Below are positions 7,439-50,415 of a stretch of DNA of 64,000 bases, piece after piece. How positions within the stretch are numbered: position 1 is the stretch's first letter; every line of letters begins with the position of its first letter. The DNA comes from Escherichia phage 4MG. Location: sequence record NC_022968.1; one strand, written 5' to 3'. Below the pieces are notes generated by a model that worked only from the letters and a program-made list of their open reading frames with translations, ran no database searches and had not been told where the DNA came from. A program made the position numbers and the translations under genes.

Positions 7439-9832
7439 TTATTGAGGAACACCAAGGATTAGGTTGATGTTACCCATGTTCGCAGCTTCAATCTGCTGGT
7501 CGATCATGTTCTTCATTTCGCCTGCGTCGATTTTGATCGTGATCTCACCGCTCACAGGTTCAGTTGGAATCACCATCGGAGGTGTTGCAGCCCCGGCTGG
7601 TCCAGGAACCATTCCATTCTGGTTCAGATAATCAAGTCTGCGCTGGTCAGTCATTGATCTCTGGCCTGTAATGAAGTCCCAAGCCTGTCCCATCCAAGAG
7701 TTTTTCTTCAGGTTACCACCTGCCGTGGTTTCAGTTCCATAAGTCTTATCGCTGTATTCCTGAGCAGAGTCGAAGACGTAATCTCCCAACAGCATACTCT
7801 CACCAGCGATCAGTGCAAACAAACCACCCTTACGTGCAAGCTTATTGCCAAGGCTTAATCCCTTGCCTTTACCCTTCTTCTTGCCCGGACCATCCTCTTC
7901 ACCACCGCCACCATTTCCAACACCAAAGATATCAGAGATAACCTTCAGTGCAGTGGAGAGACCAGCGATCTTAGTCAGGATGTTAAAGACACGAATAAGT
8001 GCAGAAGCGAAGAACAGAGCACCTACGCCCCAGCCTACCCATTTCCATGCAGAGGAAAGCTCTTCACCGTTCTTACGGAAGATCGGGATATAACGCTCCA
8101 TGATGCCTTGGATCAGGACAAAGGTGTTGTAGACAGTATAGACCATCTCCATAAACCCGGCTGTGAATCCAGCAAAGAATTGACCAAGATTTTGCGCAAG
8201 GGGACCGTTGGAGTCAAGAATTTTTGCGAGTTCGTTAAACGCGCTAGTTAATTCTTCACCAAAGCCACTCTGGAATACCTTGTTCTGGAAGTCCATCCAT
8301 GTTAATGTCAGACGCTGCATTGCAACACGGTTACCTTGCAGGGCTTTCTGAAGCGCACCACCCTTGTTTGCTGCCTCTGAGTAATACTTGGCAACGAATG
8401 GCAAGATTTTCGCAGCCTTCAGTTCACCCTTCTGCATCATGTCCATCATCTTGGTTACATCAATGGTGGAATCACCAAAAGCTTCCTGCGTTGCTTTGAG
8501 GAATACCTGTAGAGAACCAGGAATACCTTCCGCAAGCTGTTGCTTAAGTTCTTCAGCCATGATCTGACCTTTACCCATCATCTGTTGGATCGCAGTAATA
8601 CCACGTTGGTATTTAACTGGGTCAACCTGGAGGGCTGTTGAATATTCAGAGAAGGACTTGAATAGCTCATCGTTTTGTGATTTACTAAGAACACCGTTAG
8701 CGGCAATAGCCATTTGGGTGTAACCCTGTGCAGCAACTTTCAGGTCAAGACCTAAACGGTAGGACTGATCACGAACAAATTTCAGACGCTTACCTGCCTC
8801 TGCGGAGTCATCAGAAACCATCAGCATGGTTGCTTCCATACCCTGGAAGAACTGACCTGTTCTTACCACGCTTGCAGCAGCGTTGAATGCACCGTATGCA
8901 GCAGTTACACTCACCAACGTGCTACGCAGGTTCTTCAGCCCATCAGTCAAGGACAGGGTGTTCATGTTTGCTTTACGAAGTCCGGTCTCCATTGCAGCAA
9001 GTTCAGCACGGAAGTTTGAAGACTTCATGGTGTTGCTGTCAAGGAATCTTTCTTTCAGGGAGTCGAAACCCTTAAGTTTGGTTGCGTAGTTGTCACCATA
9101 TTTTGCACGAAGACGTACAGAGGCGTTGGCTACAGTTGATTCTTTACCTGCAAGATAACGAGAGTAACGAAGGTCTTCTGCCTCTTGTTTCTTACGGGCT
9201 TGTTCACGAGCACGAAGTTGCTCTCTGGATGCTTTCTGCTGTTGGCGTTGAACCTGCTGTTGCATTGCACGGTTTTGACGTGCAATCAGTGCCGGATCAG
9301 ATGCAGTACCACTACCAACCATGCCTGAAGCATTCCCTGATTTAGAACGGCGAGCCAGTTCCTCTTGCAGAGCAGCTTGACGTGCAGCAGAGATAGCGGG
9401 GTTTGTACCATAACCACCACCCGTTTTTTCCATTTGACGTAGACGTGCTTTCAGTCCATTATAGTCAGCTTGGGATTCAGGTGAACGTTTGGATGTCAGT
9501 TGAGCAACAGCTTGTTTTCTACGTGCTCTCTGGATCTTGTCAATTGCTTCACGAGCACGAGCCTCTTTCTTCGCCATAGCAATGTTATGGGCTGTGGTCT
9601 TTGCTTGTTCAGCACGTTCAGTTTGTTGCAGTCTTTTGTTGACAAGGCGAGCCTGCATTGCAGAACGCTTCAATGCTGCCGCTGGGTCTGACTTGCTGGC
9701 AGAGAATGCCTTACCAGCTTTTTCCCACTCAGTTTTCAAAGACTTCACAGCTTTCATGGCACGACCGAAGGAGGTCTTGTCCACGTCCCATGTGACTTTG
9801 TTGACTGTCTGGGTTACAATAATGTTCGCCAT
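7439..9832 (-). CDS. tail tape measure protein (797 aa)
   Basis: long A/Q/K/R-rich coiled-coil protein with Gly-rich segment, located after tail tube/chaperone genes. Confidence 0.7.
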   Translation of the reverse strand: MANIIVTQTVNKVTWDVDKTSFGRAMKAVKSLKTEWEKAGKAFSASKSDPAAALKRSAMQARLVNKRLQQTERAEQAKTTAHNIAMAKKEARAREAIDKIQRARRKQAVAQLTSKRSPESQADYNGLKARLRQMEKTGGGYGTNPAISAARQAALQEELARRSKSGNASGMVGSGTASDPALIARQNRAMQQQVQRQQQKASREQLRAREQARKKQEAEDLRYSRYLAGKESTVANASVRLRAKYGDNYATKLKGFDSLKERFLDSNTMKSSNFRAELAAMETGLRKANMNTLSLTDGLKNLRSTLVSVTAAYGAFNAAASVVRTGQFFQGMEATMLMVSDDSAEAGKRLKFVRDQSYRLGLDLKVAAQGYTQMAIAANGVLSKSQNDELFKSFSEYSTALQVDPVKYQRGITAIQQMMGKGQIMAEELKQQLAEGIPGSLQVFLKATQEAFGDSTIDVTKMMDMMQKGELKAAKILPFVAKYYSEAANKGGALQKALQGNRVAMQRLTLTWMDFQNKVFQSGFGEELTSAFNELAKILDSNGPLAQNLGQFFAGFTAGFMEMVYTVYNTFVLIQGIMERYIPIFRKNGEELSSAWKWVGWGVGALFFASALIRVFNILTKIAGLSTALKVISDIFGVGNGGGGEEDGPGKKKGKGKGLSLGNKLARKGGLFALIAGESMLLGDYVFDSAQEYSDKTYGTETTAGGNLKKNSWMGQAWDFITGQRSMTDQRRLDYLNQNGMVPGPAGAATPPMVIPTEPVSGEITIKIDAGEMKNMIDQQIEAANMGNINLILGVPQ

Positions 9833-28257: not shown

Positions 28258-28266
28258 ATTGTTTGG

Positions 28267-28339
28267 TGGGACCGGGTGGACTCGAACCACCGACCATCTG
28301 CTCTTCAGGCAGGCACTCTACCAACTGAGTTACAATCCC
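28267..28339 (-). tRNA. tRNA-Phe (GAA)
   Basis: T-arm GGTGG/TTCGAGT/CCACC, anticodon loop CTGAAGA, A73, CCA encoded. Confidence 0.75.
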
Positions 28340-28349
28340 ATAAGATTGG

Positions 28350-28420
28350 TACTTCCTGGTAGAATCGAACTACCGCAACTGCCGTGTAAAGACAGGGTTC
28401 TACCATTAAACTAAGGAAGC
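28350..28420 (-). tRNA. tRNA-Val (TAC)
   Basis: T-loop TTCGATT, anticodon loop TTTACAC, CCA encoded. Confidence 0.7.
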
Positions 28421-28430
28421 ATTAAGGTGG

Positions 28431-28504
28431 TGGGCGACAGGGGACTCGAACCCCCAAAATTCGGAATCTAAATCCGACACGTATACCAATTCCATCAATC
28501 GCCC
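28431..28504 (-). tRNA. tRNA with Leu-type anticodon TAG but short (5 nt) variable arm
   Basis: 74 nt cloverleaf, anticodon stem TCGGA/TCCGA, loop TTTAGAT, A73, CCA encoded. Confidence 0.55.
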
Positions 28505-28616
28505 ATAAATGTTTGGAAGCCCATACTGTCTTCCTGATCAGCCAGAATCCTTTTCTAGCATTATCATCGGCCCTGTAGATCCTATCATTAGCCAGGGGAT
28601 CGACGCCTTAATTTGG

Positions 28617-28689
28617 TGGAGCCACTGAGAATCGAACTCAGTTCTACAAGGTGCAAGCCTGTGATTTTATCCAAATAAACTACAGCCCC
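28617..28689 (-). tRNA. tRNA-Ala (TGC)
   Basis: anticodon loop CTTGCAC; G3:U70 pair present; CCA encoded. Confidence 0.75.
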
Positions 28690-28696
28690 ATGTTGG

Positions 28697-28769
28697 TGCA
28701 AGTACAGGGATTCGAACCCCGATTCTCAGCTTCGTAAACTGATGCTCTGTCCAGTTGAACTATACCTGC
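28697..28769 (-). tRNA. tRNA-Arg (ACG)
   Basis: T-loop TTCGAAT, anticodon loop TTACGAA, CCA encoded. Confidence 0.7.
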
Positions 28770-28778
28770 TAAAATTGG

Positions 28779-28853
28779 TCGGAGCGGCAGGATTCGAACC
28801 TGCGACCCAGTGCATCCAAGGCACCCACGCTGACCAGACTGCGCTACGCTCCG
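28779..28853 (-). tRNA. tRNA-Pro (TGG)
   Basis: T-arm GCAGG/TTCGAAT/CCTGC, anticodon loop CTTGGAT, perfect acceptor pairing, CCA encoded. Confidence 0.75.
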
Positions 28854-29040
28854 AAGGTGCAGAATTTTAATTATCCCAGATACTGCAACTGGTATCGCTG
28901 GCTAGCTAATTTGATCCGCTCTGGTCACCTCGTGTGACATTGCAGACAGGCTAACCTATTCTGCAAGAGCGTATTGGGTTTGATACGTCGAACTCATTTT
29001 GAGTGCCTTCCGGCAATTTACATCAACATATCAAATTTGG

Positions 29041-29111
29041 CGGGAACTTCCTGACTCGAACAGGAGACAACCGCAGCACAAGCGGCCATTATGCCCCTTA
29101 ACTAAATTCCC
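29041..29111 (-). tRNA. tRNA with anticodon GTG (His-type) but G73 and C37, atypical
   Basis: T-arm TCCTG/actcgaa/CAGGA on plus strand, anticodon loop TTGTGCT, CCA encoded. Confidence 0.45.
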
Positions 29112-29118
29112 AATTTGG

Positions 29119-36144: not shown

Positions 36145-37827
36145 TTACAGTTGAGCGGCTGCTCGTTCACGAATCGTTGTCAGGTCTTCATCGACAATCA
36201 GTTTGCCGTTGTAGAACACACGACGCAGTTCGTTATCGTCAGACTGTACATCTTCAAGCTGACAATTGTCAATCAGTTCTAGCTGACCAAACATATTGCG
36301 AACAACCTTCAGGAAACCTTTTGCAGACTTCTTACCGAGGTCAGTCTTAGGTTCTTTGACAACCATGATCTGCTGACCATCAATAACCGCACCAGTTGCC
36401 TTCACAGCCATACCCAGTGAATCGCGGGTTGTGTACTGGGTAGTAAAGGAACCAACACCGTACACGATATTGCTGGATGCAAAGCCTTTATCTTTCAGAC
36501 GTTCAAAGATGTCTTTTGCACGAGCAACAGTGATAGAGTCACCGTAGATCAGGCCAACATGACTATCCAGAACTTTGTAACCCTTGGAGTTAACTTCACC
36601 ACCAAAGATTTCCCACAGACACTGGATTGCACCTTTGACTTCATGGTCTTGCAGATCGGAAGGCTCAAGATCAAGGTAATCCGTATCTTCATCGAATTCG
36701 ATGTTGTAATACTTACCTTTGACTGATACAACTTCACCTTTCTCGCTTTCCCATGCTGCGTCTTTGGCTTCAGACAGCGTTTCGAAATCACCAATATAAC
36801 GATACCCCGCAATGATATGTTCCGGAATGCCTGAATCAGGACGGAACACAACACGACCGTCACGAGCCATGATTTCTTCTTTCAGAATCAGTGCTGCACG
36901 GGTAATAATCGCCCAGAAGTCATAGCTGTCTGCTACGTAGGAAACAAAACCTTTCGGGAAAATTTCCGTGATGTAGCGTTTCAGGAATTCAACTTCAGCC
37001 AGGAAACGCAGTTCATCCAGGGACAAATCAGGATTTTCAGTTTTCAGGCGACCGACGATAAAGCCAATGTTAGTTGTTGCAACACTGTGTTCTGATGCAG
37101 GAATAGAACCAGCAACGAACTTACCTTTCATGTTGTAATAACGGTTCGCATACAGAATCGCAGGAATGGTATCTGTACCCATTGAGTTGATCAGTTGACC
37201 AAACTCACTCTGTGCCGCGTCGTGAGTACCAGATTCACCGCGATAAGCGAAGCAGTGGTTCTGGAACGGAACATGCAGGTTGTTATCACAAGTTTCGGCA
37301 GCGTATGCTTCAGACAGTTTGCGATACTGCCAGAAGGTAGTTGCAGTTGTGATGGTTTTCCATGTCTCTGCGGAGATCACGCTTTCCAGGAAGTTCGGCA
37401 ACCAGTAAAAATCAGGGTGCGTGTTCTGAATGGTGAACAGCGGAACCTGTACCGGGGACAGAGTGCCTTCAGGAATCGAACGGATTTCCAGTGGCAGGTA
37501 ACCAAGGTCATGCAGCTTTTCAAAGCCCCAGGTTTCAACCATGTCCGGGCCGATGCTCAGTTCACAAATTTCTTTGTACTGTGCGATAGCCGCTTTCTTT
37601 TTCATTTTGAAAAAGTTTTCGTTGAACAGGTCGATCAGGAACCATTTGATGAAACCTTGCAAGCCAGCCATCATCACACGCTGATCGTTATCAGCGAAGT
37701 GAATGAAGTGCTTTGCATTGCGTGGTGTCATGTTGTCCTGAACAATTTCAGAACGTCGGTCATACATGGAGATGTGTGAAGGTTTGTAAAAGTCAGCGAA
37801 TACGAGTGGGCTTTCTTTATGCAGCAT
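36145..37827 (-). CDS. nicotinamide phosphoribosyltransferase family protein (560 aa)
   Basis: NAMPT-like sequence features across ORF by recall; adjacent to PRS-like gene. Confidence 0.7.
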   Translation of the reverse strand: MLHKESPLVFADFYKPSHISMYDRRSEIVQDNMTPRNAKHFIHFADNDQRVMMAGLQGFIKWFLIDLFNENFFKMKKKAAIAQYKEICELSIGPDMVETWGFEKLHDLGYLPLEIRSIPEGTLSPVQVPLFTIQNTHPDFYWLPNFLESVISAETWKTITTATTFWQYRKLSEAYAAETCDNNLHVPFQNHCFAYRGESGTHDAAQSEFGQLINSMGTDTIPAILYANRYYNMKGKFVAGSIPASEHSVATTNIGFIVGRLKTENPDLSLDELRFLAEVEFLKRYITEIFPKGFVSYVADSYDFWAIITRAALILKEEIMARDGRVVFRPDSGIPEHIIAGYRYIGDFETLSEAKDAAWESEKGEVVSVKGKYYNIEFDEDTDYLDLEPSDLQDHEVKGAIQCLWEIFGGEVNSKGYKVLDSHVGLIYGDSITVARAKDIFERLKDKGFASSNIVYGVGSFTTQYTTRDSLGMAVKATGAVIDGQQIMVVKEPKTDLGKKSAKGFLKVVRNMFGQLELIDNCQLEDVQSDDNELRRVFYNGKLIVDEDLTTIRERAAAQL

Positions 37828-37880
37828 GTTTTGTTTCTCCTTTGTGTGTTTTGATGGGGTGATTCTACACCCCGTTTCGT

Positions 37881-38414
37881 TTAGATGTCAAGTGAAAAAT
37901 CTAAAGATTTAGATTCTTCTGTTACAACCGTTGTTTCTTTAACCAGACGACAGCCTTTCACCTTGATTTCTTTGGCTGGTGACCACTTAGTCGCACGGAT
38001 ATAGAATGTGTTTGCACGAATAACCATGAACCGGGCTACATCTTCAGGTGGTTCCTCGTTAATAAAAATCGCAACACTTTCGTATGCAGGCCACTTCATA
38101 GGGTTTTCATCGGTAACATCGGAATGTATACCATTACCGTTGTTAGTGCGACCCGGTGTAGGCCAGATAGTACAAGGTCGATAGCAGGCGTGGTCATCAG
38201 GAACCTGAATAACGTGATTTTCTAACCACGAGCAAATTTTTTCCAGGTCAAAATCATAATGGTCTTCTTTCAGGTCTTCAATATCTGTACGATATTCAGC
38301 CCCAACACCACACTCACCGATTTGCCCGGTAATATGAGCGCACATGTCACGCTCAAAGTTTCCTGCGTATGAGTCAGTATCGACAACAAAAATAAAACGA
38401 GTTGATTCAGTCAT
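37881..38414 (-). CDS. hypothetical protein (177 aa) between NAMPT-like and PRS-like genes
   Basis: ORF track; Cys/His-containing, no family recognised. Confidence 0.45.
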   Translation of the reverse strand: MTESTRFIFVVDTDSYAGNFERDMCAHITGQIGECGVGAEYRTDIEDLKEDHYDFDLEKICSWLENHVIQVPDDHACYRPCTIWPTPGRTNNGNGIHSDVTDENPMKWPAYESVAIFINEEPPEDVARFMVIRANTFYIRATKWSPAKEIKVKGCRLVKETTVVTEESKSLDFSLDI

Positions 38415-39214
38415 TAAAAATTCTCCGTCCAGTCATGGTATGCGTAGATTTCATCAACCCCGCCATCGAGGATGATTTGTTTCCCGAATGAGAAAATGCC
38501 GTGCGTAACGTAAAGGATAACACGTTTTGCACCATTCTCTTTCAGGGCTTTAGCCAGGGCGATGAAGGTACGACCACCATCACAGATATCATCGACGACA
38601 ACGCATTCGCGTCCTTCAACATCACCAAAGATTGCTGTCCCCGTAATTTCGTTTGTTTTCAGGTCACGAACCTTACCAGCTTCAACCAGAGGGAGTCGCA
38701 TACGGTCGGCAACCTTCTGTGCCTTCTTGCGAGCGCCTGCGTCTGGTGCAACAATGGTCACATCTTTCCCGGCAAGTTGATCATGGAATTCTGCAACAAG
38801 AATCTCTTGTCCACGAATCTGAACATTGTCCAGCAGTGCAGCAGAAACATCACTGTGTGGGTCATCAACAATCACTTTGTCGAAGCCAAGCGAGTTGACG
38901 AGGTTTGCAAAAACCTTGATAGATAGTGACTGTCCAGGTTGCATCACGCGATCCTGACGGGCATACGGGATGTATGGCAGGTGCAGGGTAAACTCAGCAT
39001 GGTTATGCAGCCCTTCAAGACGGGAACATGCATCCACCAACATAGCTAATGCCATGACATCGGTGGAGTTTTTGATTTTTGCAGTGATATCGACGAAACC
39101 AATACCGCCTTTTGGGGCATGTTTCAGATCAATCTCAACCTGTTCCTCACCACCCTTGAAGGTGAAGTGGTTAACAGGCACTTCCAGTTTGTTCAAGCGT
39201 AATTCAATACTCAT
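38414..39214 (-). CDS. ribose-phosphate pyrophosphokinase family protein (266 aa)
   Basis: PRPP-binding motif CVVVDDICDGGRT; shorter than typical bacterial Prs. Confidence 0.7.
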   Translation of the reverse strand: MSIELRLNKLEVPVNHFTFKGGEEQVEIDLKHAPKGGIGFVDITAKIKNSTDVMALAMLVDACSRLEGLHNHAEFTLHLPYIPYARQDRVMQPGQSLSIKVFANLVNSLGFDKVIVDDPHSDVSAALLDNVQIRGQEILVAEFHDQLAGKDVTIVAPDAGARKKAQKVADRMRLPLVEAGKVRDLKTNEITGTAIFGDVEGRECVVVDDICDGGRTFIALAKALKENGAKRVILYVTHGIFSFGKQIILDGGVDEIYAYHDWTENF

Positions 39215-39811: not shown

Positions 39812-40135
39812 ATGTTGTCAAGTAAACAAACAAAAGATATTGGTGATATGGTATGTGGAAAACCTCGTCGTAAACCTGAACAGACTGACGAGGAGAAGTC
39901 AAGACTTATGTTAATTCGTGATGTTTTTCATGAAACAATGAAAGAACAAAATGTGTGTGTTGTGTTACCAGATGGTAAGTCCGAGCAGGAAGTGTTCGGA
40001 GATTACCTCACGTCATTGCGTGGTCGATTAAGACGTAGAAATGTGACTGTGGTGTGGTATAAAGACTTGACAGTGGAACACATCGAGAGTAATAATTGTG
40101 TGGTGGATCTCAGTGAGATTCGTATAACGCTCTAG
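39812..40135 (+). CDS. hypothetical early protein (107 aa)
   Basis: ATG 39812 after strong RBS. Confidence 0.45.
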   Translation: MLSSKQTKDIGDMVCGKPRRKPEQTDEEKSRLMLIRDVFHETMKEQNVCVVLPDGKSEQEVFGDYLTSLRGRLRRRNVTVVWYKDLTVEHIESNNCVVDLSEIRITL

Positions 40136-40803: not shown

Positions 40804-41039
40804 GCAGACTTTCAAAGCTTCACAGACGAAAGAACATGCTGAAAGAAAAGCAGAAAAATATCACCGCAACTTTCCAAGTGTGCCGTGAAGCTATGAAGGC
40901 AAATCTGATAACGCCTTCACAGAGGCAGATTATCCGTGATATACTCCGGCCTGTGCTGCACGACCTGGAGGGCGAGGTTCGTGATGTTTTATGCCACATT
41001 CAAGAAGAACTTGAAAAATTAAATCAGGAGAATACATGA
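40800..41039 (+). CDS. hypothetical protein (79 aa)
   Basis: ATGA overlap with upstream gene. Confidence 0.4.
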   Translation: MSRLSKLHRRKNMLKEKQKNITATFQVCREAMKANLITPSQRQIIRDILRPVLHDLEGEVRDVLCHIQEELEKLNQENT

Positions 41040-41629
41040 TCGACCACGTTACATCAGACACGCATTGGTGGCACACCAATATTCTGGGTTTTCCCTCGTG
41101 TGATAAATTCCGGAAAAACCTGTACGGTCCAAAGGAAGTCCGTGAAAGTCTGTATGCCATGAATGCTGGCATGATTGAAATCTGGAATAAGCACGTCAAA
41201 CCAGATGATGTCGTAGCACACCTCGGTGATTTCGTGATTGCTTACGGACGCTACATGGAGCCTCGCGTTCGTGACATCTTGGAAAAGATCAACGGAAAGA
41301 TCATTCTGGTTGGTGGAAACCATGACAACCGAGATACGAAACGTATCTTCCGTGAGTTTGGTCACGAAGTTGTTGATTATAAAGAGATTAACTTCAGCAC
41401 TGGAAAAGAGAAGGTGCATGTGTGTATGTCTCACTATCCGTTTGCATCGTGGAATAAAGCTCACCACGGGTCAGTTATGCTGCACGGTCATAGCCACGGC
41501 TCCTATACAGCCCCTGGTGGACGTATTCTGGATGTGGGTTGGGATGTACATGGTCGTCCTCTGACGATGCGTGAAGCCGTCCTGATGTGCCTTGAAAAAC
41601 CAATTTACACTGCTGATCACGGAGAATAA
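41036..41629 (+). CDS. calcineurin-like metallophosphoesterase (197 aa)
   Basis: motifs HLGDF, GGNHD, HGHSH typical of Ser/Thr phosphatase-type phosphoesterases. Confidence 0.65.
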   Translation: MIDHVTSDTHWWHTNILGFPSCDKFRKNLYGPKEVRESLYAMNAGMIEIWNKHVKPDDVVAHLGDFVIAYGRYMEPRVRDILEKINGKIILVGGNHDNRDTKRIFREFGHEVVDYKEINFSTGKEKVHVCMSHYPFASWNKAHHGSVMLHGHSHGSYTAPGGRILDVGWDVHGRPLTMREAVLMCLEKPIYTADHGE

Positions 41630-41987: not shown

Positions 41988-42187
41988 AAATTCACAACAT
42001 AACCAAGGACAGGATTCATTTCATAATGGATTCAGGGGCTTACGGTTCAATTTCAAAGGTGGATGCCATGAAGTTTCTGTATGCTTCAAATATTCCTCAG
42101 GCAAAGCTTGACTCCCGTTCAGGAGAGTGTATTATTGACTCTATTACGAATACACAAGAACTGTGGGAGATATATCATGAAATTTAA
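41984..42187 (+). CDS. hypothetical protein (67 aa)
   Basis: ATGA overlap. Confidence 0.35.
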   Translation: MKIHNITKDRIHFIMDSGAYGSISKVDAMKFLYASNIPQAKLDSRSGECIIDSITNTQELWEIYHEI

Positions 42188-43097
42188 CGTAGATGATCTG
42201 GTTGCTAAAAAGCTGGTAACCAAAAAGACTTACACCGAAGGCCCGTTCGCGGGTCTGTCTGTACTGAAATATAAGAACAATGTGTTCTGGGATAACCTGT
42301 GGCACACAGATGCGCGTCTGCTTGAGTGCCGTGGCATGGTTGTTGATGCAGAGGACAACGTTGTTATCTGGCCTTTCACGAAGATTTTCAATCGCTTCGA
42401 GAACAACACTGATGTCCCACAGGACAAGTTGGTGTGCGTACCTCGTAAAGTCAATGGCTTTATGGCAGCAATGAGTGTTTACAATGGTGAAGTAATTGTG
42501 TCTACCACAGGAACACTTGATTCTGAGTTTGCACAAATGGCAAAAGATAAGATCACTGGTTCCATGCCTGAAGGGATGCTTGACTATTTCGTGAAGAATG
42601 CTGGACCTTGCACACTTATCTTTGAAATATGTGATGAGAGTGATCCCCACATTGTCGCAGAAGAAGCGGGTGCTTATCTGATTGGTTGCCGGGTCCACTT
42701 AAGTGGTGGTATGCTTCCAGAGTGGGACCTTGATAGAGTTGCAAATCGTTATGGTTGGAAACGTGCTGACTGGGACAACATGATCTTCAGCGATGTTGTT
42801 AAGGCTTCCAAGTCAGTTAATCATGAAGGTTTTGTTGTTCGTGATGTTGACACCAATGAGCTACTGCTGAAAATTAAGTCTCCACATTACCTGGCGAAGA
42901 AGTTCCTGATGCGTGGTAGCCAGAACAAGTGGGACCTGATTTGGGACAACCCGAAAGAAGCCAAAAAACGTATCGACGAAGAGTTCTACGAACTTCTTGA
43001 CTGGCTGCGCTGGGCTTACGAAAAAGATGAGTGGGCGGCTAAGGACTCTCAGTATCGTCGTATGATTATTGAAAAATATTTTGAGGATCGCAAATGA
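42177..43097 (+). CDS. ATP-dependent ligase-like nucleotidyltransferase, putative RNA ligase (306 aa)
   Basis: covalent nucleotidyltransferase motifs I KVNG, IV EGFVVR, V LLKIK; start ATG 42177 within ORF 42081..43097. Confidence 0.5.
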   Translation: MKFNVDDLVAKKLVTKKTYTEGPFAGLSVLKYKNNVFWDNLWHTDARLLECRGMVVDAEDNVVIWPFTKIFNRFENNTDVPQDKLVCVPRKVNGFMAAMSVYNGEVIVSTTGTLDSEFAQMAKDKITGSMPEGMLDYFVKNAGPCTLIFEICDESDPHIVAEEAGAYLIGCRVHLSGGMLPEWDLDRVANRYGWKRADWDNMIFSDVVKASKSVNHEGFVVRDVDTNELLLKIKSPHYLAKKFLMRGSQNKWDLIWDNPKEAKKRIDEEFYELLDWLRWAYEKDEWAAKDSQYRRMIIEKYFEDRK

Positions 43098-43330
43098 CAC
43101 TCATGTCAATCAAGAACAAACTTGACCGGGCTGTTTCCATAATTACCAGACTTATCATTGGGTTATCTGTGTTTATCTTCTTATTTGCACTGATAATCTT
43201 TGTGAATTGGGTTATCGAAACTCTGGGTGGTAAAGTAATATTCGGTGGAATTCTGCTCATCATTGCGGTGATTGGCTGTTATGGTGTTGGATGTTCCATC
43301 TACCCACACAAAGAAAAGGGTGAAAAATGA
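43094..43330 (+). CDS. small membrane protein (78 aa)
   Basis: two hydrophobic helices. Confidence 0.4.
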   Translation: MTLMSIKNKLDRAVSIITRLIIGLSVFIFLFALIIFVNWVIETLGGKVIFGGILLIIAVIGCYGVGCSIYPHKEKGEK

Positions 43331-43671
43331 TCATCTGGCTTGATGACTTGAGAGACCCAAAAGACTACGGGTATCCTGATGCCTTGTGGTTCAAGACCTC
43401 TCAGAAGTTTATGGATTTTCTTGATAATCGGTCAAAGTTCTATCGTTATGTCACAGAGTGGCATTTTGATAATGACCTAGGTGAAGATTCAGAAAAGGAG
43501 GGCTATGACTGCCTACTGGCCTTGGAAGAGAAGCTTGTGTATGGGAAACTTCCTGTGCATGATGCTAAACTCTATGTCCATACGTCTAACCCTTCTGCGG
43601 CACAAAAGTTCATGCTTGCAAAAGAGAGCTTCTTGAAGTATCGTATCACGATCTTAAGAAACAATTACTGA
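43327..43671 (+). CDS. hypothetical protein (114 aa)
   Basis: ORF track, ATGA overlap. Confidence 0.4.
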   Translation: MIIWLDDLRDPKDYGYPDALWFKTSQKFMDFLDNRSKFYRYVTEWHFDNDLGEDSEKEGYDCLLALEEKLVYGKLPVHDAKLYVHTSNPSAAQKFMLAKESFLKYRITILRNNY

Positions 43672-43680
43672 GGAGAAGAG

Positions 43681-44088
43681 ATGGAAAAGACTCTGATCAT
43701 CCTGCGTGGTGTGTCTGGTGCTGGTAAGTCTACAGTAGCAGATATGCTGGCAGAGGATTTGTGGCCTGTCTATGAAGCAGATAAATTCCACTACACAGAA
43801 GATGGCGTGTACGACTGGAAACCTGAAAACATGCAGGCTGCACACGCATGGTGTCAGTCAGAGGTCAAAGATATGATGGGGTGGAATATCAGCAGGATCA
43901 TCGTATCTAACACCTCTACCAGTGAAAAAGAACTGAAGCCGTATCTTGATCTCGCAGCGGAGAACGGGTATCGTGTCATCAGCTTGGTGGTAGAAAACCG
44001 TCATGGCAATGACTCCATTCACAGCGTTCCGCAGGAAACCCGCGATGCTCAAGAGCGTCGTCTGCGTAACTCATTGAAATTACAGTAA
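43681..44088 (+). CDS. P-loop kinase, polynucleotide-kinase-like (135 aa)
   Basis: Walker A GVSGAGKST at N-terminus; small AAA-kinase architecture. Confidence 0.55.
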   Translation: MEKTLIILRGVSGAGKSTVADMLAEDLWPVYEADKFHYTEDGVYDWKPENMQAAHAWCQSEVKDMMGWNISRIIVSNTSTSEKELKPYLDLAAENGYRVISLVVENRHGNDSIHSVPQETRDAQERRLRNSLKLQ

Positions 44089-44098
44089 GGGGAAACAA

Positions 44099-44875
44099 TT
44101 GAGGCGTTTAATTGTTATTAGTGGTGCAGGCTTCTCTGCTGAAAGCGGTGTTCGTACATTCCGTACTGATACAGACTCCGGAAAGGCTTTGTGGGATGAG
44201 TACGACCTTGAAGAGGTCTGTAATATCCATGCTTTCCGTGGTAATTTCTATCACAAAACGCACATGTTTTATAACAAGCGTCGTGTAGAACTGCAAACTG
44301 TGCATCCGAATGCTGCACATATGCGTGTTGCTGAGTGGTATAAAAACTACCCAAAACAGGTTGTTAATCTGACGACAAACGTAGATGACCTGCTGGAACG
44401 TGCTGGTGTTCCTAAGGAAGATACTCTGTATATCCACGGATATCTGAAAGAACTTCGGTATAAACTTCACGAAGATTCTGAAGAGCAGTTAGTTGACATT
44501 GGTTACAATGAAGTAGATCCTGATGAATTTCACTGGTGCAAACCAAATGTGGTCTTCTTTGGTGAGGCTGCTCCAGCATATAACGACCTATACTCAACCC
44601 TAGATAGCCTGACATCTGAAGACATGGTGATTGTTGTTGGATGCTCAAACACAGTTATCAACTTCAACTGGGAGCTTTTCCCAGCATCAAGGATGGGTAC
44701 TAAGATTGTTGTGGTTAACCCTAATGTTCGCTACGATGAACAGTTGATGTACGAAGACGCTGGTGTTGTTGTATACCGAACTGGTGCTGTAGATGCGTTC
44801 AGCAACCCTGGTCTCATCAAAATGGTTGAGGATCACCTTGAAGGTAAAACCTCATTGCAGAAGAAGGAGAAATAA
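44099..44875 (+). CDS. Sir2-family (sirtuin-like) NAD-binding protein (258 aa)
   Basis: motifs GAGFSAESGVRTFR, TTNVDDL, YIHG, VVFFGE; canonical Zn-binding Cys pairs not evident; TTG start. Confidence 0.6.
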   Translation: MRRLIVISGAGFSAESGVRTFRTDTDSGKALWDEYDLEEVCNIHAFRGNFYHKTHMFYNKRRVELQTVHPNAAHMRVAEWYKNYPKQVVNLTTNVDDLLERAGVPKEDTLYIHGYLKELRYKLHEDSEEQLVDIGYNEVDPDEFHWCKPNVVFFGEAAPAYNDLYSTLDSLTSEDMVIVVGCSNTVINFNWELFPASRMGTKIVVVNPNVRYDEQLMYEDAGVVVYRTGAVDAFSNPGLIKMVEDHLEGKTSLQKKEK

Positions 44876-46179
44876 TGTCAATTAGTTTAGACACACCAAC
44901 ACTATACGCCATTAACAAGGACGGATCGTATCAAGTTTGGAATGTAACCACAGAAGGTGATGAGGTTGTCGTTTCTTTCGGTAAGGAAAATGGAAAGATT
45001 CAACAAAAGCGCACCAAGTGTGAAATGAAAAACATTGGTCGTTCCAATGAAACCACCGCTGAGTTCCAGGCCGTCCTGGAGGCCCGGTCTAAGTGGGAGA
45101 AACAGGTCCGTTTAGGTTATCGTGAGACCAAAGAGGAGTTACAGACGGAAGAGAACTTCTCTCCTATGCTGGCACACGATGCGATCAAACGGTCAAAGTC
45201 AATCGTCTATCCTGCGTATATTCAGCCAAAGCTCGATGGTGTTCGTGCTCTTGTGACGCTTGACAAGGACGGCATCCCGGTGTTTAATAGCCGTGGCAAC
45301 AAAACATACCCAGTACAGGGCGCTTTATTGCAGCAAGTTAAAGAACTTGCAGAGCACACAGGGTTTGACAAGTTCGATGGTGAACTGTATATTCATGGTC
45401 TAAGCCTTCAGAAGATTGTTGCTTTGGCTAAGAAGTGGCGCACCCCTGAACAGATTGAAGCTGAGATCGAGAAAGACTATCAGGCTGATATCAAGCGCTG
45501 TAATAAGGCGGTTGCCGATGGTGAGCATCTCTGGAAAGACTTTGATGGTAATGTGTGGGCTGTTTCCACGTATAAACCAGTAAAAGACGTTGACCGCTTC
45601 AGTGGTTATTCCAGTCTTGACCTAGAGTATCACATCTTTGACATTCCTGTGAATGCACAAAGCCCTTGGTACTCTTATGAGCATGATAAGACCAGACATC
45701 AAGATCTGTTGGTGGTTGCCGATGCTGTTGAATGTGAACTTAACGTACCTATGGTGAAAGTTATCCACGGGATCGTGGTATCTTCTGAAAGGGAAGTTAA
45801 ATGGTCCATCGGTAAATACATGGAGCAGGGATTTGAAGGTTCAATCATCCGAAACTTCAAAGGTGTCTACGAATTTGGTCAACGATCCTCTGATCTCCAA
45901 AAATGGAAACAGTTCCAGGATGGTGAGGCAAAAGTTCTTGATTCTGTAGAGGATAAGAACGGTGAGGGTGTCCTGCTCTGTGAAGAAAGAGATGGTACTC
46001 GATTCAACTGCAAAATGAAAGGCACTCACGCAGAGCGTTCTCAGGCGAAGATGCTATTGTTGGTTGGCGATTTCATCAACTTTACATTCCAGTCGCGTAC
46101 TGATGATGGTGTACCTCAGTTCCCGGTGGGGCAGAGTGTACGTGAACTTGATACATTAACATGGGAGCCAGTATACTAA
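44875..46179 (+). CDS. ATP-dependent DNA ligase (434 aa)
   Basis: motif I KLDGVR, motif III DGELY, motif IV EGSIIR. Confidence 0.7.
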   Translation: MSISLDTPTLYAINKDGSYQVWNVTTEGDEVVVSFGKENGKIQQKRTKCEMKNIGRSNETTAEFQAVLEARSKWEKQVRLGYRETKEELQTEENFSPMLAHDAIKRSKSIVYPAYIQPKLDGVRALVTLDKDGIPVFNSRGNKTYPVQGALLQQVKELAEHTGFDKFDGELYIHGLSLQKIVALAKKWRTPEQIEAEIEKDYQADIKRCNKAVADGEHLWKDFDGNVWAVSTYKPVKDVDRFSGYSSLDLEYHIFDIPVNAQSPWYSYEHDKTRHQDLLVVADAVECELNVPMVKVIHGIVVSSEREVKWSIGKYMEQGFEGSIIRNFKGVYEFGQRSSDLQKWKQFQDGEAKVLDSVEDKNGEGVLLCEERDGTRFNCKMKGTHAERSQAKMLLLVGDFINFTFQSRTDDGVPQFPVGQSVRELDTLTWEPVY

Positions 46180-47005: not shown

Positions 47006-47695
47006 ATGAGTAAGGTTTACGAAACACTTTTAGCGATGACAAAACCAACAGATCTGTACGCATATGCGGAGCATGTTATCGAATGGAACCATGTTGCATA
47101 TCGTGCTCGCAATAATGTGGCAACACCATTCGATCTGCAATGGGGCTTTATTCGTGAAGAATTCAACGAACTCGTTGACGCACTCCGTGTTGGTGACCGT
47201 ATCGAAACTGTTGACGCTGCCTGTGATCTCTTTGTTGTAGCTTCATACGCTTGCCAGTTGAAGAGTCCTGAGTATCTTCGTGAAGCCTGTATTCCTTCAC
47301 CGACACTGACGTTCACTATTGGCGATCTTGAGCACAACCTGTATGGCAATATGCGAGACCCGGTTTATGTTCTTAAGCTGGTAACTGCATTATGTTATCG
47401 CCTTGATATTAATCTTGACTACAATATGCGACAGGTGTTACATTCAAACGATACCAAATACCCATATGTGCAAGATATCCTTGCCTTGTGGCCTGGTAAG
47501 GCGAAAGCCGAAGCTTTACGTCAAGAATGTAAGGCAATCGAAGATCGTTCCAATGGTCGTTATGAGGGTGTTGGTTTCCGCGAGGTAATTGATATCCGCA
47601 ACCCGGATGTTAAAGGTTCACGCCTTGTCTTCTTCGATAGAAACGGAAAAATCATGAAGCCAAGCACTTTCGAAAGTCCGAAAATTATTGCTTGA
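47006..47695 (+). CDS. hypothetical protein, possible MazG-like NTP pyrophosphohydrolase (229 aa)
   Basis: segment IREEFNELVDALRVGDRIETVDAACDL resembles EExxE...D motif; weak. Confidence 0.35.
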   Translation: MSKVYETLLAMTKPTDLYAYAEHVIEWNHVAYRARNNVATPFDLQWGFIREEFNELVDALRVGDRIETVDAACDLFVVASYACQLKSPEYLREACIPSPTLTFTIGDLEHNLYGNMRDPVYVLKLVTALCYRLDINLDYNMRQVLHSNDTKYPYVQDILALWPGKAKAEALRQECKAIEDRSNGRYEGVGFREVIDIRNPDVKGSRLVFFDRNGKIMKPSTFESPKIIA

Positions 47696-47719
47696 CAATG
47701 GATAAGGGGTCTGTATAAT
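47692..47719 (+). promoter_or_regulatory. consensus sigma70 promoter (TTGACA, 16 nt spacer, TATAAT)
   Basis: -35 47692..47697, -10 47714..47719; upstream of RBS GAGGAGAA and gene 47750. Confidence 0.65.
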
Positions 47720-48592: not shown

Positions 48593-48756
48593 TGTTACTA
48601 AACCTGAAAGCGTCTACCTGGGAAAAGTTGCAGCACTTAGCGCGAGTTAAGAATAAGTCTGCTGCTGCCCTTGTAGCAAAAATTGTTGACGAACATGTTG
48701 ACGAGAAAGTAAAAACTACCTATAAAATTGAAGAGGAGAACCAAACCAATGCTTAA
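48592..48756 (+). CDS. small ribbon-helix-helix-like DNA-binding protein (54 aa)
   Basis: ATG 48592 after RBS GGAGG; LNLKASTWEKLQHLAR..SAAALVAKIV pattern; hand-translated. Confidence 0.35.
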   Translation: MLLNLKASTWEKLQHLARVKNKSAAALVAKIVDEHVDEKVKTTYKIEEENQTNA

Positions 48757-49639
48757 GAATATCAAACGTGTGATTTTTGCTGGCCTGATCGCTCTGGGTG
48801 CCGTTGGCCTGACTGGTTGTGAACGTGCAACTGTCCCGGCAGGTTATGTGGGTGTGAAGGTTGACCTGTATGGCGACGAAAAGGGTGTTCAGCAGCAGGA
48901 AGTGGGTGTTGGTAAATACTGGCTGACCTGGAACGAAGAAATCTATCAGTTCCCTACATTCAACCAGTTAAACAACTACGACCAACCGTTTAACTTCCAG
49001 ACCAAGGATTCTATGACGGTCTCTGCGAAGGTTGGTGTTGAGTATTACGTTGACCGCTCCAAGGTCACCAAGATCTTCCAGACCTACCGTAAAGGTGTTC
49101 AGGAAATCACTGATGTCAACATTCGTCAGAACATCTCTGATGCACTGATCAAAGAAGCGGGTACGATGGATATCGGTACGCTGGCTGGCGATGGTAAATC
49201 TCAGCTTCTGGATCGTGTGACGAAGACCCTGAAAGCGAAGCTTGACCCGATTGGTATCGTGATCGTGAAACTGTCTTACACTGATGATCTGCGTTATCCA
49301 CCACAGGTAACCGCATCCATCAACGCGAAGATCGAAGCGACTCAGAAAGCGCTGCTGCGTGAAAACGAAATCCAGCAGACCAAAGCTGAAGCTCAGAAAC
49401 AGATCGAAGCCGCTCGCGGTGAAGCTGAATCTAAGCGACTGCAAGCTCAGGGTGAGGCAGATGCTAAAGTAGCACTGGCAAAAGGTGAAGCAGAATCCAT
49501 CCAACTGCGTGGTGATTCTCTCCGCAAAAACCCAGAAATTATGCAACTGGAAGCGATCAACAAGTGGAACGGTGTGACCCCGGTCTATATGACCAGCGGT
49601 TCTCAGACCCCATTCGTTACCCTGCCAGCAGGTAAATAA
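48749..49639 (+). CDS. SPFH/band-7 domain lipoprotein (296 aa)
   Basis: signal peptide with lipobox LTGC, then SPFH-like core and C-terminal coiled coil; start within ORF 48728..49639. Confidence 0.55.
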   Translation: MLKNIKRVIFAGLIALGAVGLTGCERATVPAGYVGVKVDLYGDEKGVQQQEVGVGKYWLTWNEEIYQFPTFNQLNNYDQPFNFQTKDSMTVSAKVGVEYYVDRSKVTKIFQTYRKGVQEITDVNIRQNISDALIKEAGTMDIGTLAGDGKSQLLDRVTKTLKAKLDPIGIVIVKLSYTDDLRYPPQVTASINAKIEATQKALLRENEIQQTKAEAQKQIEAARGEAESKRLQAQGEADAKVALAKGEAESIQLRGDSLRKNPEIMQLEAINKWNGVTPVYMTSGSQTPFVTLPAGK

Positions 49640-49908: not shown

Positions 49909-50415
49909 ATGAGAGTAACTGATCAGCATGTTTTCTTCTTCACTTATCGTGATATGTTCAGCAACCACTTTCGACAGATAATTCCTATTCGTTGTGGTGG
50001 CTATGAGTTCTTCACGGTGGAGCACTTTATGATGTTCCAAAAAGCAATGCTCTTTGATGACAAAGAGATTGCTGCACGTATTGCCACAGTTGATAATCCA
50101 AACGAGGCAAAAGCGCTGGGTCGTAAAGTCAGGGACTTTGACAACAGTGTTTGGGAAGAAAACAGAATGGACATTGTAACAAACGGTCTTGTTCTGAAAA
50201 TGAAGGCTAACCGCTCTATTCTGGAGTCTGCACTGACTCACAGAGATGCTGGGCGGCGATTTGTAGAGGCATCCCCGTATGATGCAATCTGGGGTGTAAA
50301 ACTGAATGAATATGATCCACGCATTGATGATCCTGCTAACTGGCAAGGTCTTAATCTTCTCGGTGAGTGCTGGGAAAGAGCAATTGATGTTGTGATCGCA
50401 GCTTCGTGGAGGTGA
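49909..50415 (+). CDS. NADAR-domain protein (YbiA-like, DUF1768) (168 aa)
   Basis: N-terminal FFFTYRDMFSNHF, EHFMMFQKAML, later WGVKLNEY block characteristic of YbiA/NADAR family by recall. Confidence 0.6.
   Translation: MRVTDQHVFFFTYRDMFSNHFRQIIPIRCGGYEFFTVEHFMMFQKAMLFDDKEIAARIATVDNPNEAKALGRKVRDFDNSVWEENRMDIVTNGLVLKMKANRSILESALTHRDAGRRFVEASPYDAIWGVKLNEYDPRIDDPANWQGLNLLGECWERAIDVVIAASWR

Follow-up and report, generated by a model that had tools for sequence, protein, structure and literature searches.

The genome of Escherichia phage 4MG (NC_022968.1) contains, within the analyzed stretch of 64,000 nucleotides (the window), a gene at 44099–44875 (+) coding for a protein of the Sir2 family. 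The locus raises the question which reaction is catalyzed by a sirtuin that lacks zinc-binding cysteines and is encoded among repair enzymes for RNA and DNA. A first-pass annotation had described the product as a Sir2-like protein without evident zinc-binding cysteines and had grouped it with the reduced Sir2 domains which act in bacterial immunity as ADP-ribosyltransferases or as enzymes consuming nicotinamide adenine dinucleotide (NAD). The description was borne out, the grouping was not. The protein derives from canonical deacylases of the class III-like type (CobB/SIRT5-like) and belongs to a branch that is nearly confined to phages. The best guess for its function, read from its conserved residues, is a lysine deacylase for anionic acyl groups, a tentative assignment to which somewhat less than an even chance is given.

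The open reading frame (ORF) comprises 258 codons, starts with TTG and is preceded by AAGGGG 6 nt upstream. The TTG start at 44099 is supported by homologues of the same length, which share the N-terminus MRRLI...; equal length is also given in the annotation of the orthologue from the closest sequenced phage, Enterobacter phage EC152. In a Pfam search of the protein, PF02146 (SIR2) was the sole family found (E=2.3e-23, 83.5 bits at a cut-off of 24, profile positions 1–178 of 180), and SIR2_2 was not reported. A match to PHROG 2162, "Sir2 (NAD-dependent deacetylase)", was obtained with E=1.5e-111. Among the relatives with solved structures, Escherichia coli CobB is the closest by sequence (E=4e-20), followed by Sir2Af2 and Sir2Af1 (E=1e-17 to 1e-15) and SIRT5 (E=2e-12). 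The structure was modeled with AlphaFold2 from 75 relatives, resulting in a predicted local distance difference test score (pLDDT) of 89.5 and a predicted template modeling score (pTM) of 0.87. A Foldseek search of the PDB with this model returned CobB first (template modeling scores of 0.75–0.86), then Sir2Af1 and Sir2Af2, SIRT5 and Sir2Tm, and all of the top 50 structures are canonical deacylases. On these grounds the gene was classified as encoding a zinc-free sirtuin of the class III type with 258 amino acids.

The NAD-binding blocks named by the first-pass annotation are all present, namely GAGFSAESGVRTFR (residues 9–22), TTNVDDL (residues 92–98) and VVFFGE (residues 151–156). Conservation was determined in a set of 121 relatives with 53–86% identity and in a second set of 120 more distant cluster representatives. 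Nineteen residues show no variation among the 121 relatives (G9, A10, G11, S13, S16, F21, R22, Y58, R61, R62, N94, D96, H113, G114, F153, F154, E156, G181, and S183), and most of them are also conserved to at least 85% among the distant representatives. The first seven lie in the NAD-binding loop (44123–44164 (+)), which is followed by the clade-specific insertion TDTD of four residues. The motif TTNVD (residues 92–96; 44372–44386 (+)) corresponds to the canonical TQNxD with threonine in place of glutamine, and T93, N94, and D96 are invariant in the clade. The catalytic histidine H113 is located in the dipeptide HG (44435–44440 (+)) and aligns with H147 of CobB; together with G114, N94, and D96 it reaches at least 85% conservation in the distant set. 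The substrate-cleft loop of sirtuins is represented by FFGE (residues 153–156; 44555–44566 (+)), aligned with W189, F190, G191, and E192 of CobB.

Structure prediction and mapping of the catalytic residues, as proposed with the first-pass annotation, thus gave a confident sirtuin fold in which His113, Asn94, and Asp96 are invariant. The residues predicted to serve NAD+ binding, nicotinamide cleavage and activation of the 2′-OH (F21, R22, N94, D96, H113, and FGE) are all strictly conserved, and the sirtuin is apparently active and NAD-using.

The residues around the acyl group are conserved to the same degree. Tyr58 and Arg61, both invariant in the 121 relatives, lie in the motif FYNKRR (residues 57–62; 44267–44284 (+)); they represent the class III determinant for anionic acyl groups and align with Y92 and R95 of CobB, both of which are needed for desuccinylation (PMC6636992). 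For the corresponding pairs, Y102/R105 of SIRT5 and Y64/R67 of Sir2Af1, it was stated that their presence is enough to predict that negatively charged acyl chains are preferred (PMC4253809). Furthermore, the pocket residues A76, I131, and V187 of CobB, which according to PDB titles were exchanged in order to alter acyl selectivity, map to C41, V95, and V151, all of them invariant, and judged from the sequence the acyl-lysine tunnel of CobB is probably kept. Common to the protein and to CobB, SIRT5, and Sir2Af1 are the FGE motif, the Tyr/Arg pair and the three catalytic residues (His, Asn, and Asp), as well as the single-domain architecture and a similar size. It differs from CobB in lacking the zinc ligands (C155, C174, C176, and C177 in CobB), in having TTN instead of TQN, in the insertion after the FR motif, in the replacement of GTSxxVYPAA by GCSNxVINFNWELFP and in the absence of the basic N-terminal extension.

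The lack of zinc-binding cysteines, which had already been noticed by the first-pass annotation, could be traced through the whole group. The protein contains only three cysteines (C41, C147, and C182) and no CxxC pair, and CxxC was found in none of the 121 clade members. In an alignment with full-length CobB, whose sequence was taken from a prophage record containing the host cobB locus, the zinc-site positions C155, S158, C174, and C176 align to Y121, H124, H145, and C147. These four positions are among the least conserved across the 121 relatives, being occupied by V/Y/I, E/A/H, D/H/G, and C/V/A, respectively. H124, H145, and C147 were considered as alternative zinc ligands and rejected, as they are not conserved among the relatives. 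The zinc cysteines are also missing in the sirtuins of T5, of the jumbo phage 121Q and of a KVP40-like phage, and the predicted loss of zinc is a property of the whole clade, not of a single gene. The first-pass annotation had named an intact deacetylase site with a zinc ribbon and an activity restricted to lysine deacetylation as speaking against its proposal; of this, the intact active site of the deacylase type was found, the zinc ribbon was not.

The module itself remains as a remnant without zinc ligands (residues 114–151; 44438–44551 (+)), which is predicted to form three strands (residues 114–122, 130–133, and 146–151) and was modeled with a pLDDT of about 97. Within it, the 121 relatives have G135 without exception and conserve Y136, Y/F144, and W146. 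A small hydrophobic core has probably replaced the metal in the three-stranded sheet.

The loss of zinc goes along with the replacement of the glutamine in the TQN motif. Among 146 full-length representatives of clusters at 50% identity, a residue other than glutamine at this position coincides with the loss of the zinc cysteines (counts 78/13/13/42; Fisher p ~8e-14, not corrected for phylogeny). The exceptions are 13 TQN sequences without the cysteines and 13 sequences with the cysteines and no glutamine. Judged from this distribution, the zinc cysteines have been lost several times among the sirtuins related to the phage clade. Position 93 (Gln to Thr) is the only one that separates all zinc-free members from all zinc-bearing relatives, which is partly circular, as the groups were defined by it. 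The motifs VCNI and FFGE of the phage clade are common to many zinc-bearing relatives, and the remaining signature residues are specific to the core clade of T5 and rV5.

A zinc-independent lysine deacylase is ranked first, because the protein has kept the residues lining the pocket and tunnel of CobB and because all characterized relatives with this set of residues are such enzymes. The enzyme would bind NAD+ and a lysine of a host or phage protein carrying an anionic acyl group of the succinyl or malonyl type, or an acetyl group, would release nicotinamide and would transfer the acyl group to ADP-ribose, with the zinc-ribbon module probably held by hydrophobic residues instead of zinc. The nicotinamide could be recycled by the phage's own module of NAMPT and phosphoribosyl pyrophosphate (PRPP) synthetase. 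The product, O-acyl-ADP-ribose or ADP-ribose, might be processed by adjoining phosphoesterases, which are cREC, a metallophosphoesterase and a MazG-like protein in this phage and Nudix, 2H-like or HAD proteins elsewhere. Such product handling would explain why Nudix, cREC, 2H-like or HAD proteins are encoded beside the sirtuin in unrelated phages. By analogy with CobB, which reactivates acetyl-CoA synthetase, lysine-adenylating ligases are plausible, if speculative, targets, because the gene shares a tight operon of ~7 kb with RNA-end repair enzymes and a DNA ligase. A deacylase was also proposed in an in silico study of the Sir2 protein of KVP40-type phages, in which transcription during infection was measured (PMC5107563).

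Several observations weigh against a deacylase. The glutamine of the TQN motif is replaced by threonine in the core clade, by serine in 121Q and by alanine in a KVP40-like phage. The insertion TDTD (residues 23–26) is the only segment with a pLDDT below 50 and is missing in zinc-bearing relatives, and the loop after GxS is replaced by the conserved clade-specific segment SN-x-VINFNWELFP (with N184, F189, W191, and P195). Because of these three changes the chemistry or the substrate may have shifted. In addition, the NCBIfam equivalog models for CobB (NF040867 and the PRK00481 models) score far under their cut-offs, with NF001753 as the best (118 bits vs. 243) and NF040867 at 97 vs. 320 bits. 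Since this holds for all of these models, the protein is a relative of CobB and not its orthologue. T4 and lambda are reportedly restricted by the CobB of the host (PMC4271551), so that a phage would gain no obvious benefit from more activity of this kind. Searches of the full-text literature revealed neither enzymatic nor genetic tests of a phage sirtuin. Finally, the sirtuin is linked recurrently to cREC, HAD_SAK, Nudix, RNA ligase, and kinase genes in three unrelated phage families, and on this linkage a role in RNA repair was based by Iyer et al. (PMC9503650).

The genomic context of the gene bears directly on this last point. The operon starts with a calcineurin-like metallophosphoesterase (41036–41629 (+); PF00149, E=2.7e-6), the orthologue of which is annotated as phosphoesterase in EC152 and rV5. 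It is followed by two unknown genes, an RNA ligase 1 of the T4 RnlA type (42177–43097 (+); phrog_562 "RNA ligase and tail fiber protein attachment catalyst", E=2e-64; the counterparts in EC152 and rV5 bear the name RNA ligase 1) and a small membrane protein. Next come the cyclic-phosphate processing receiver domain protein cREC (43327–43671 (+); PF20274, E=6.9e-18) and a stand-alone P-loop kinase related to polynucleotide kinases (43681–44088 (+); PF13671 AAA_33, E=5e-8; phrog_2071, E=3e-57; phrog_505, E=7e-8), which ends 10 nt before the sirtuin start. The kinase has 135 amino acids, covers only the N-terminal half of its PHROG profile (positions 14–148 of 282) and lacks the fused 3′-phosphatase of T4 Pnkp. 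Downstream of the sirtuin, an ATP-dependent DNA ligase (44875–46179 (+); PF01068, E=1.6e-11; PF14743, E=3.7e-7) overlaps the sirtuin stop with its start by one base (TAATG). Two further unknown genes and, as the last gene, a MazG/PRA-PH-like nucleotide pyrophosphohydrolase (47006–47695 (+); PF01503, E=1.8e-4; phrog_671, E=7.8e-25) complete the operon.

Between 41036 and 47695, adjacent genes either overlap or leave gaps of no more than ~10 nt, and a convincing internal terminator was not found. A promoter-like site with 11 of 12 matches to the sigma-70 consensus is located upstream of the operon (40067–40096 (+)), and a perfect sigma-70 consensus (TTGACA-16-TATAAT; 47692–47719 (+)) follows right after the MazG-like gene, so that both sites bracket a transcription unit of ~7.5 kb. 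The arrangement corresponds to "configuration 2" of Iyer et al. (PMC9503650), as all five partners, RNA ligase, cREC, kinase, MazG, and calcineurin-like phosphoesterase, are present, the last of which belongs to this configuration only in some cases. The same order around the sirtuin was found in EC152, in rV5 and in 13 of 66 surveyed loci, and in this survey the Vequintavirinae-type and the T5-type arrangements were each uniform within their lineage.

In T5, the sirtuin gene is followed by HAD_SAK_2 ("HAD domain in Swiss Army Knife RNA repair proteins", E=4e-20) and by two DUF7415 proteins. This tandem pair always follows Sir2-HAD_SAK in T5-like phages (T5 locus 8661–9482); in two loci of Klebsiella T5-like phages DUF7415 comes directly after Sir2, and HAD_SAK was not detected there. 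In the jumbo phage 121Q, a Nudt16-like Nudix protein and then cREC (E=3.5e-22) follow the sirtuin. In PHA46, a protein of 148 amino acids annotated as "RNA ligase" precedes it and a Nudix and a cREC-like protein follow. Around the sirtuin of Phapecoctavirus, KVP40-like phages and several metagenomic lineages no RNA-repair neighbors were recognized, and a Pfam search of the neighbors in Phapecoctavirus and six metagenomic lineages revealed DNA ligase and endonuclease VII only. As these lineages show none, the linkage to RNA repair is not universal.

On the basis of such neighborhoods, the sirtuin was proposed to be a functional analogue of Tpt1/KptA in phage RNA repair (Iyer, Burroughs, Anantharaman, and Aravind, 2022), which we regard as possible but doubtful. 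According to this model, host anticodon nucleases leave a 2′,3′-cyclic phosphate and a 5′-OH, cREC opens the former to a 2′-phosphate, the kinase phosphorylates the 5′ end and RnlA seals the break. The sirtuin would then move the leftover 2′-phosphate to NAD+, yielding nicotinamide and ADP-ribose 1″-2″ cyclic phosphate, which would be degraded by the neighboring phosphoesterases. Of all explanations, this one accounts best for the linkage of the sirtuin to RNA ligase and kinase, and the published type-2 neighborhood is exactly present in the window, with its genes as tightly spaced as described above. The configurations of T5, 121Q, and PHA46 with their HAD_SAK_2, Nudix, cREC, and "RNA ligase" neighbors were independently confirmed here. 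Moreover, 25 tRNA genes, which together serve most amino acids, form an array (28264–34878 (−)) about 6 kb upstream of the sirtuin operon, and with a kinase lacking the fused 3′-phosphatase a healing of the fungal type, which leaves a 2′-phosphate, is conceivable. The invariant Tyr/Arg pair could hold a phosphate in place of a carboxylate.

The chemistry of sirtuins and of Tpt1 is formally parallel, since in both an oxygen nucleophile attacks C1″ of NAD+ and the 2″-OH of the ribose attacks subsequently. Tpt1/KptA also uses NAD+, releases nicotinamide and proceeds in two steps via an ADP-ribosylated intermediate, whereas for the sirtuin a parallel activity is only predicted. Both are genomically coupled to RNA ligase, kinase and a cyclic phosphodiesterase analogue (PMC9503650), but they are not homologous and have unrelated folds (ADP-ribosyltransferase vs. 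Rossmann).

The support for an activity on RNA comes from gene context only, and the partners cREC and HAD_SAK are uncharacterized as well. The members of the clade are acidic (isoelectric points of 4.6–6.05) and carry no recognizable RNA-binding extension. As the residues of the acyl-lysine tunnel are conserved, a 2′-phosphate attached to the RNA backbone would probably be hard to deliver through the narrow tunnel. In addition, the metallophosphoesterase could heal the ends fully, which would make a 2′-phosphotransferase needless. No RNA ligase gene is located within 6–7 kb of the T5-type sirtuin, and several lineages, among them Phapecoctavirus and KVP40-like phages, lack RNA-repair neighbors altogether. 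The full proposal, in which the zinc-free phage sirtuin is an NAD+-dependent RNA 2′-phosphotransferase that holds the phosphate with its Tyr/Arg pair and completes a fungal-type tRNA repair in phages such as T5, rV5, and PVP-SE1, is considered rather unlikely. If it is true, an action on nucleic acid would be shown for a sirtuin for the first time, and the pathway would repair tRNAs cut by host anticodon nucleases. A role in counter-defense, as suggested by the first-pass annotation, is plausible by way of these adjacent RNA-repair genes (PMC9503650), but not through the depletion of NAD.

It is improbable that the protein is an NAD+ glycohydrolase or that it ADP-ribosylates proteins or nucleic acids of the host, either for host takeover or for blunting NAD-based immunity. 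Sirtuin folds are able to hydrolyze NAD+ or to ADP-ribosylate, as known from defense SIR2 proteins and SirTM (PMC4518038, PMC9503650), and the change of glutamine to threonine together with the modified loops at the NAD site is a departure from the canonical enzyme. The presence of NADAR and NAD salvage genes also fits a genome which manipulates ADP-ribose chemistry. Such a function is at odds, however, with the phage's own investment in NAD salvage if NAD+ were destroyed wholesale, and a simple NADase does not account for the strict conservation of the Tyr/Arg pair and of FGE.

Two specific types were compared and rejected. Defense-type SIR2 NADases (ThsA, DSR1/2, SIR2-HerA, and SPARSA) also lack the zinc ribbon and, like SirTM, share the Sir2-type Rossmann NAD site with the phage sirtuin. 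The sensors or partners expected of the defense type (SLOG, HerA, pAgo, or a large C-terminal domain) are neither fused to the phage sirtuin nor encoded next to it; it is a single domain with RNA and DNA repair enzymes as neighbors. No PADLOC family was matched at E<=1, and none of these proteins occurs in the Foldseek top 50. With PF02146 as the only family, canonical deacylases as the nearest folds and both HG and the Tyr/Arg pair retained, the assignment of the first-pass annotation to the reduced immunity type was given up. In class M sirtuins of the SirTM type, the only dedicated ADP-ribosylating class that is characterized, QG replaces HG, the zinc domain is retained and a linkage to a macrodomain exists (PMC4518038), whereas HG is invariant in the phage sirtuin and a macrodomain gene neither adjoins it nor occurs in the operon.

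A decaying gene, or a binder of NAD+ or ADP-ribose that has little or no turnover and serves to sense or soak up immune signals derived from NAD, would fit the existence of phage sponges for nucleotide signals and the usual destabilization of sirtuins by zinc loss, but is very improbable. The catalytic residues (His, Asn, and Asp) do not vary in ~1000 phage records from several phage families, the structure model is confident and the ORF length is uniform, which argues for selection on catalysis and not on binding alone.

The distribution of the sirtuin was analyzed at the level of phages and of cellular genomes. The window is that of a Seunavirus-like phage of the Vequintavirinae, and the nearest record to it is EC152 (Vequintavirinae, Seunavirus) with 83% DNA identity, followed by PVP-SE1, KpS8, Ro1 and their kin with ~76–80%. 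By tblastn, sirtuin homologues were found in 1004 phage records, and the carriers include T5 and other Demerecviridae, Vequintavirinae (rV5 and PVP-SE1), Phapecoctavirus, KVP40-like phages, and jumbo phages. The gene of T5 is labeled "cobb: putative transferase". Within PHROG 2162, which also includes PVP-SE1 gp109, the identity to the 4MG protein is 89.5% for Klebsiella phage DP, 86% for KpS8, 61.5% for T5 (AAX12033), and 56.5% for rV5 (ORF84). The zinc-free module and TTN are common to its members, and there is no difference of substance between these sirtuins and that of 4MG, whose gene order is that of EC152 and rV5.

A pattern scan of one genome per species in 185,579 bacterial and archaeal species yielded only three relatives, all with at most 39% identity, and divergent members could escape such a scan. 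As no more were found, the clade is regarded as essentially restricted to phages. One of the three is zinc-free with TTN and lies on a contig of a metagenome-assembled genome, and another, from Sulfurospirillum, has 37% identity, TQN and two CxxC pairs. Ten longer distant relatives (297–528 amino acids) contain SIR2 and, in one case, a WG repeat only, so that fusions are uninformative on the function.

The Sir2/CobB protein of KVP40-like phages was modeled on CobB and its zinc loss was reported by Skliros et al. (2016, Front Microbiol, PMC5107563), who proposed the deacetylation of host enzymes such as acetyl-CoA synthetase. It has the conserved histidine and the acetyl-lysine site, has lost the zinc site and is co-encoded with NAD salvage genes (PMC5107563). 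The proteins of the Vibrio phages phiSt2 and phiGrn1 have ~42% identity to that of 4MG and share FYNxRR, and in both groups the TQN position is not occupied by glutamine. Their neighbors differ, as they include no recognizable RNA-repair genes. To stabilize the module, salt bridges were proposed by the authors, while in the clade of 4MG the aromatic residues Y/F144, W146, and Y136 are more obvious candidates. Phage sirtuins were later described as a distinct clade together with the operon, and a KptA/Tpt1-like removal of RNA 2′-phosphates was predicted (Iyer et al., 2022, Viruses, PMC9503650). Since the zinc loss (2016) and the neighborhood (2022) are both published, the gene is already known in kind; its family has been annotated from the T5 genome onward, and it is an ordinary member and no new kind of object. 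What the window adds is a clean and complete example of the operon and the finding that the Tyr/Arg determinant for anionic groups does not vary within the clade, by which the range of promising substrates is narrowed.

Phage sirtuins have been called "enigmatic" by authors since the KVP40 and T5 genomes, and the gene is carried by the model phage T5 and by hundreds of phages that are candidates for therapy. The two leading candidate activities are sharply different and easily distinguished. If the deacylase is true, phages would reprogram host protein acylation, backed by their own NAD supply. If an analogue of Tpt1 is true, sirtuin chemistry would extend to RNA, and phages would have a second way of repairing tRNAs in the face of anticodon-nuclease defenses, one that depends on NAD.

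The remaining context named by the first-pass annotation, a DNA ligase adjoining the sirtuin, an NAD salvage module and a NADAR protein, was found as described. The salvage module (36145–39214 (−)) lies divergently upstream of the sirtuin operon. It consists of NAMPT (36145–37827; PF04095, E=1.6e-27), a protein of 176 amino acids and PRPP synthetase (38414–39214; PF00156, PF14572, and PF13793). The intervening unknown protein is conserved (phrog_23621, E=1.6e-109). A nicotinamide mononucleotide adenylyltransferase was not seen in 36145–39214, so that the last step to NAD may rely on a gene outside this stretch or on the host. Downstream of the operon, a gene for a NADAR-domain protein is located at 49909–50415 (+) (PF08719, E=6.2e-34). 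Its orthologue in EC152 is annotated as "GTP cyclohydrolase II", which is probably a misannotation. Between the operon and the NADAR gene, a protein of the SPFH/Band 7 family is encoded (48728–49639 (+); PF01145, E=2e-21).

Finally, two minor observations concern the annotation of records. In the tRNA array, one gene at 30264–30333 was reported by ARAGORN as "tRNA-???" with an anticodon of two bases. The sirtuin match in ON470612.1 ("Escherichia phage vB_EcoS-640R1") is the chromosomal cobB of E. coli, flanked by lolCDE, nagK, and potCD, and this "partial genome" therefore contains host DNA adjoining an integrase.

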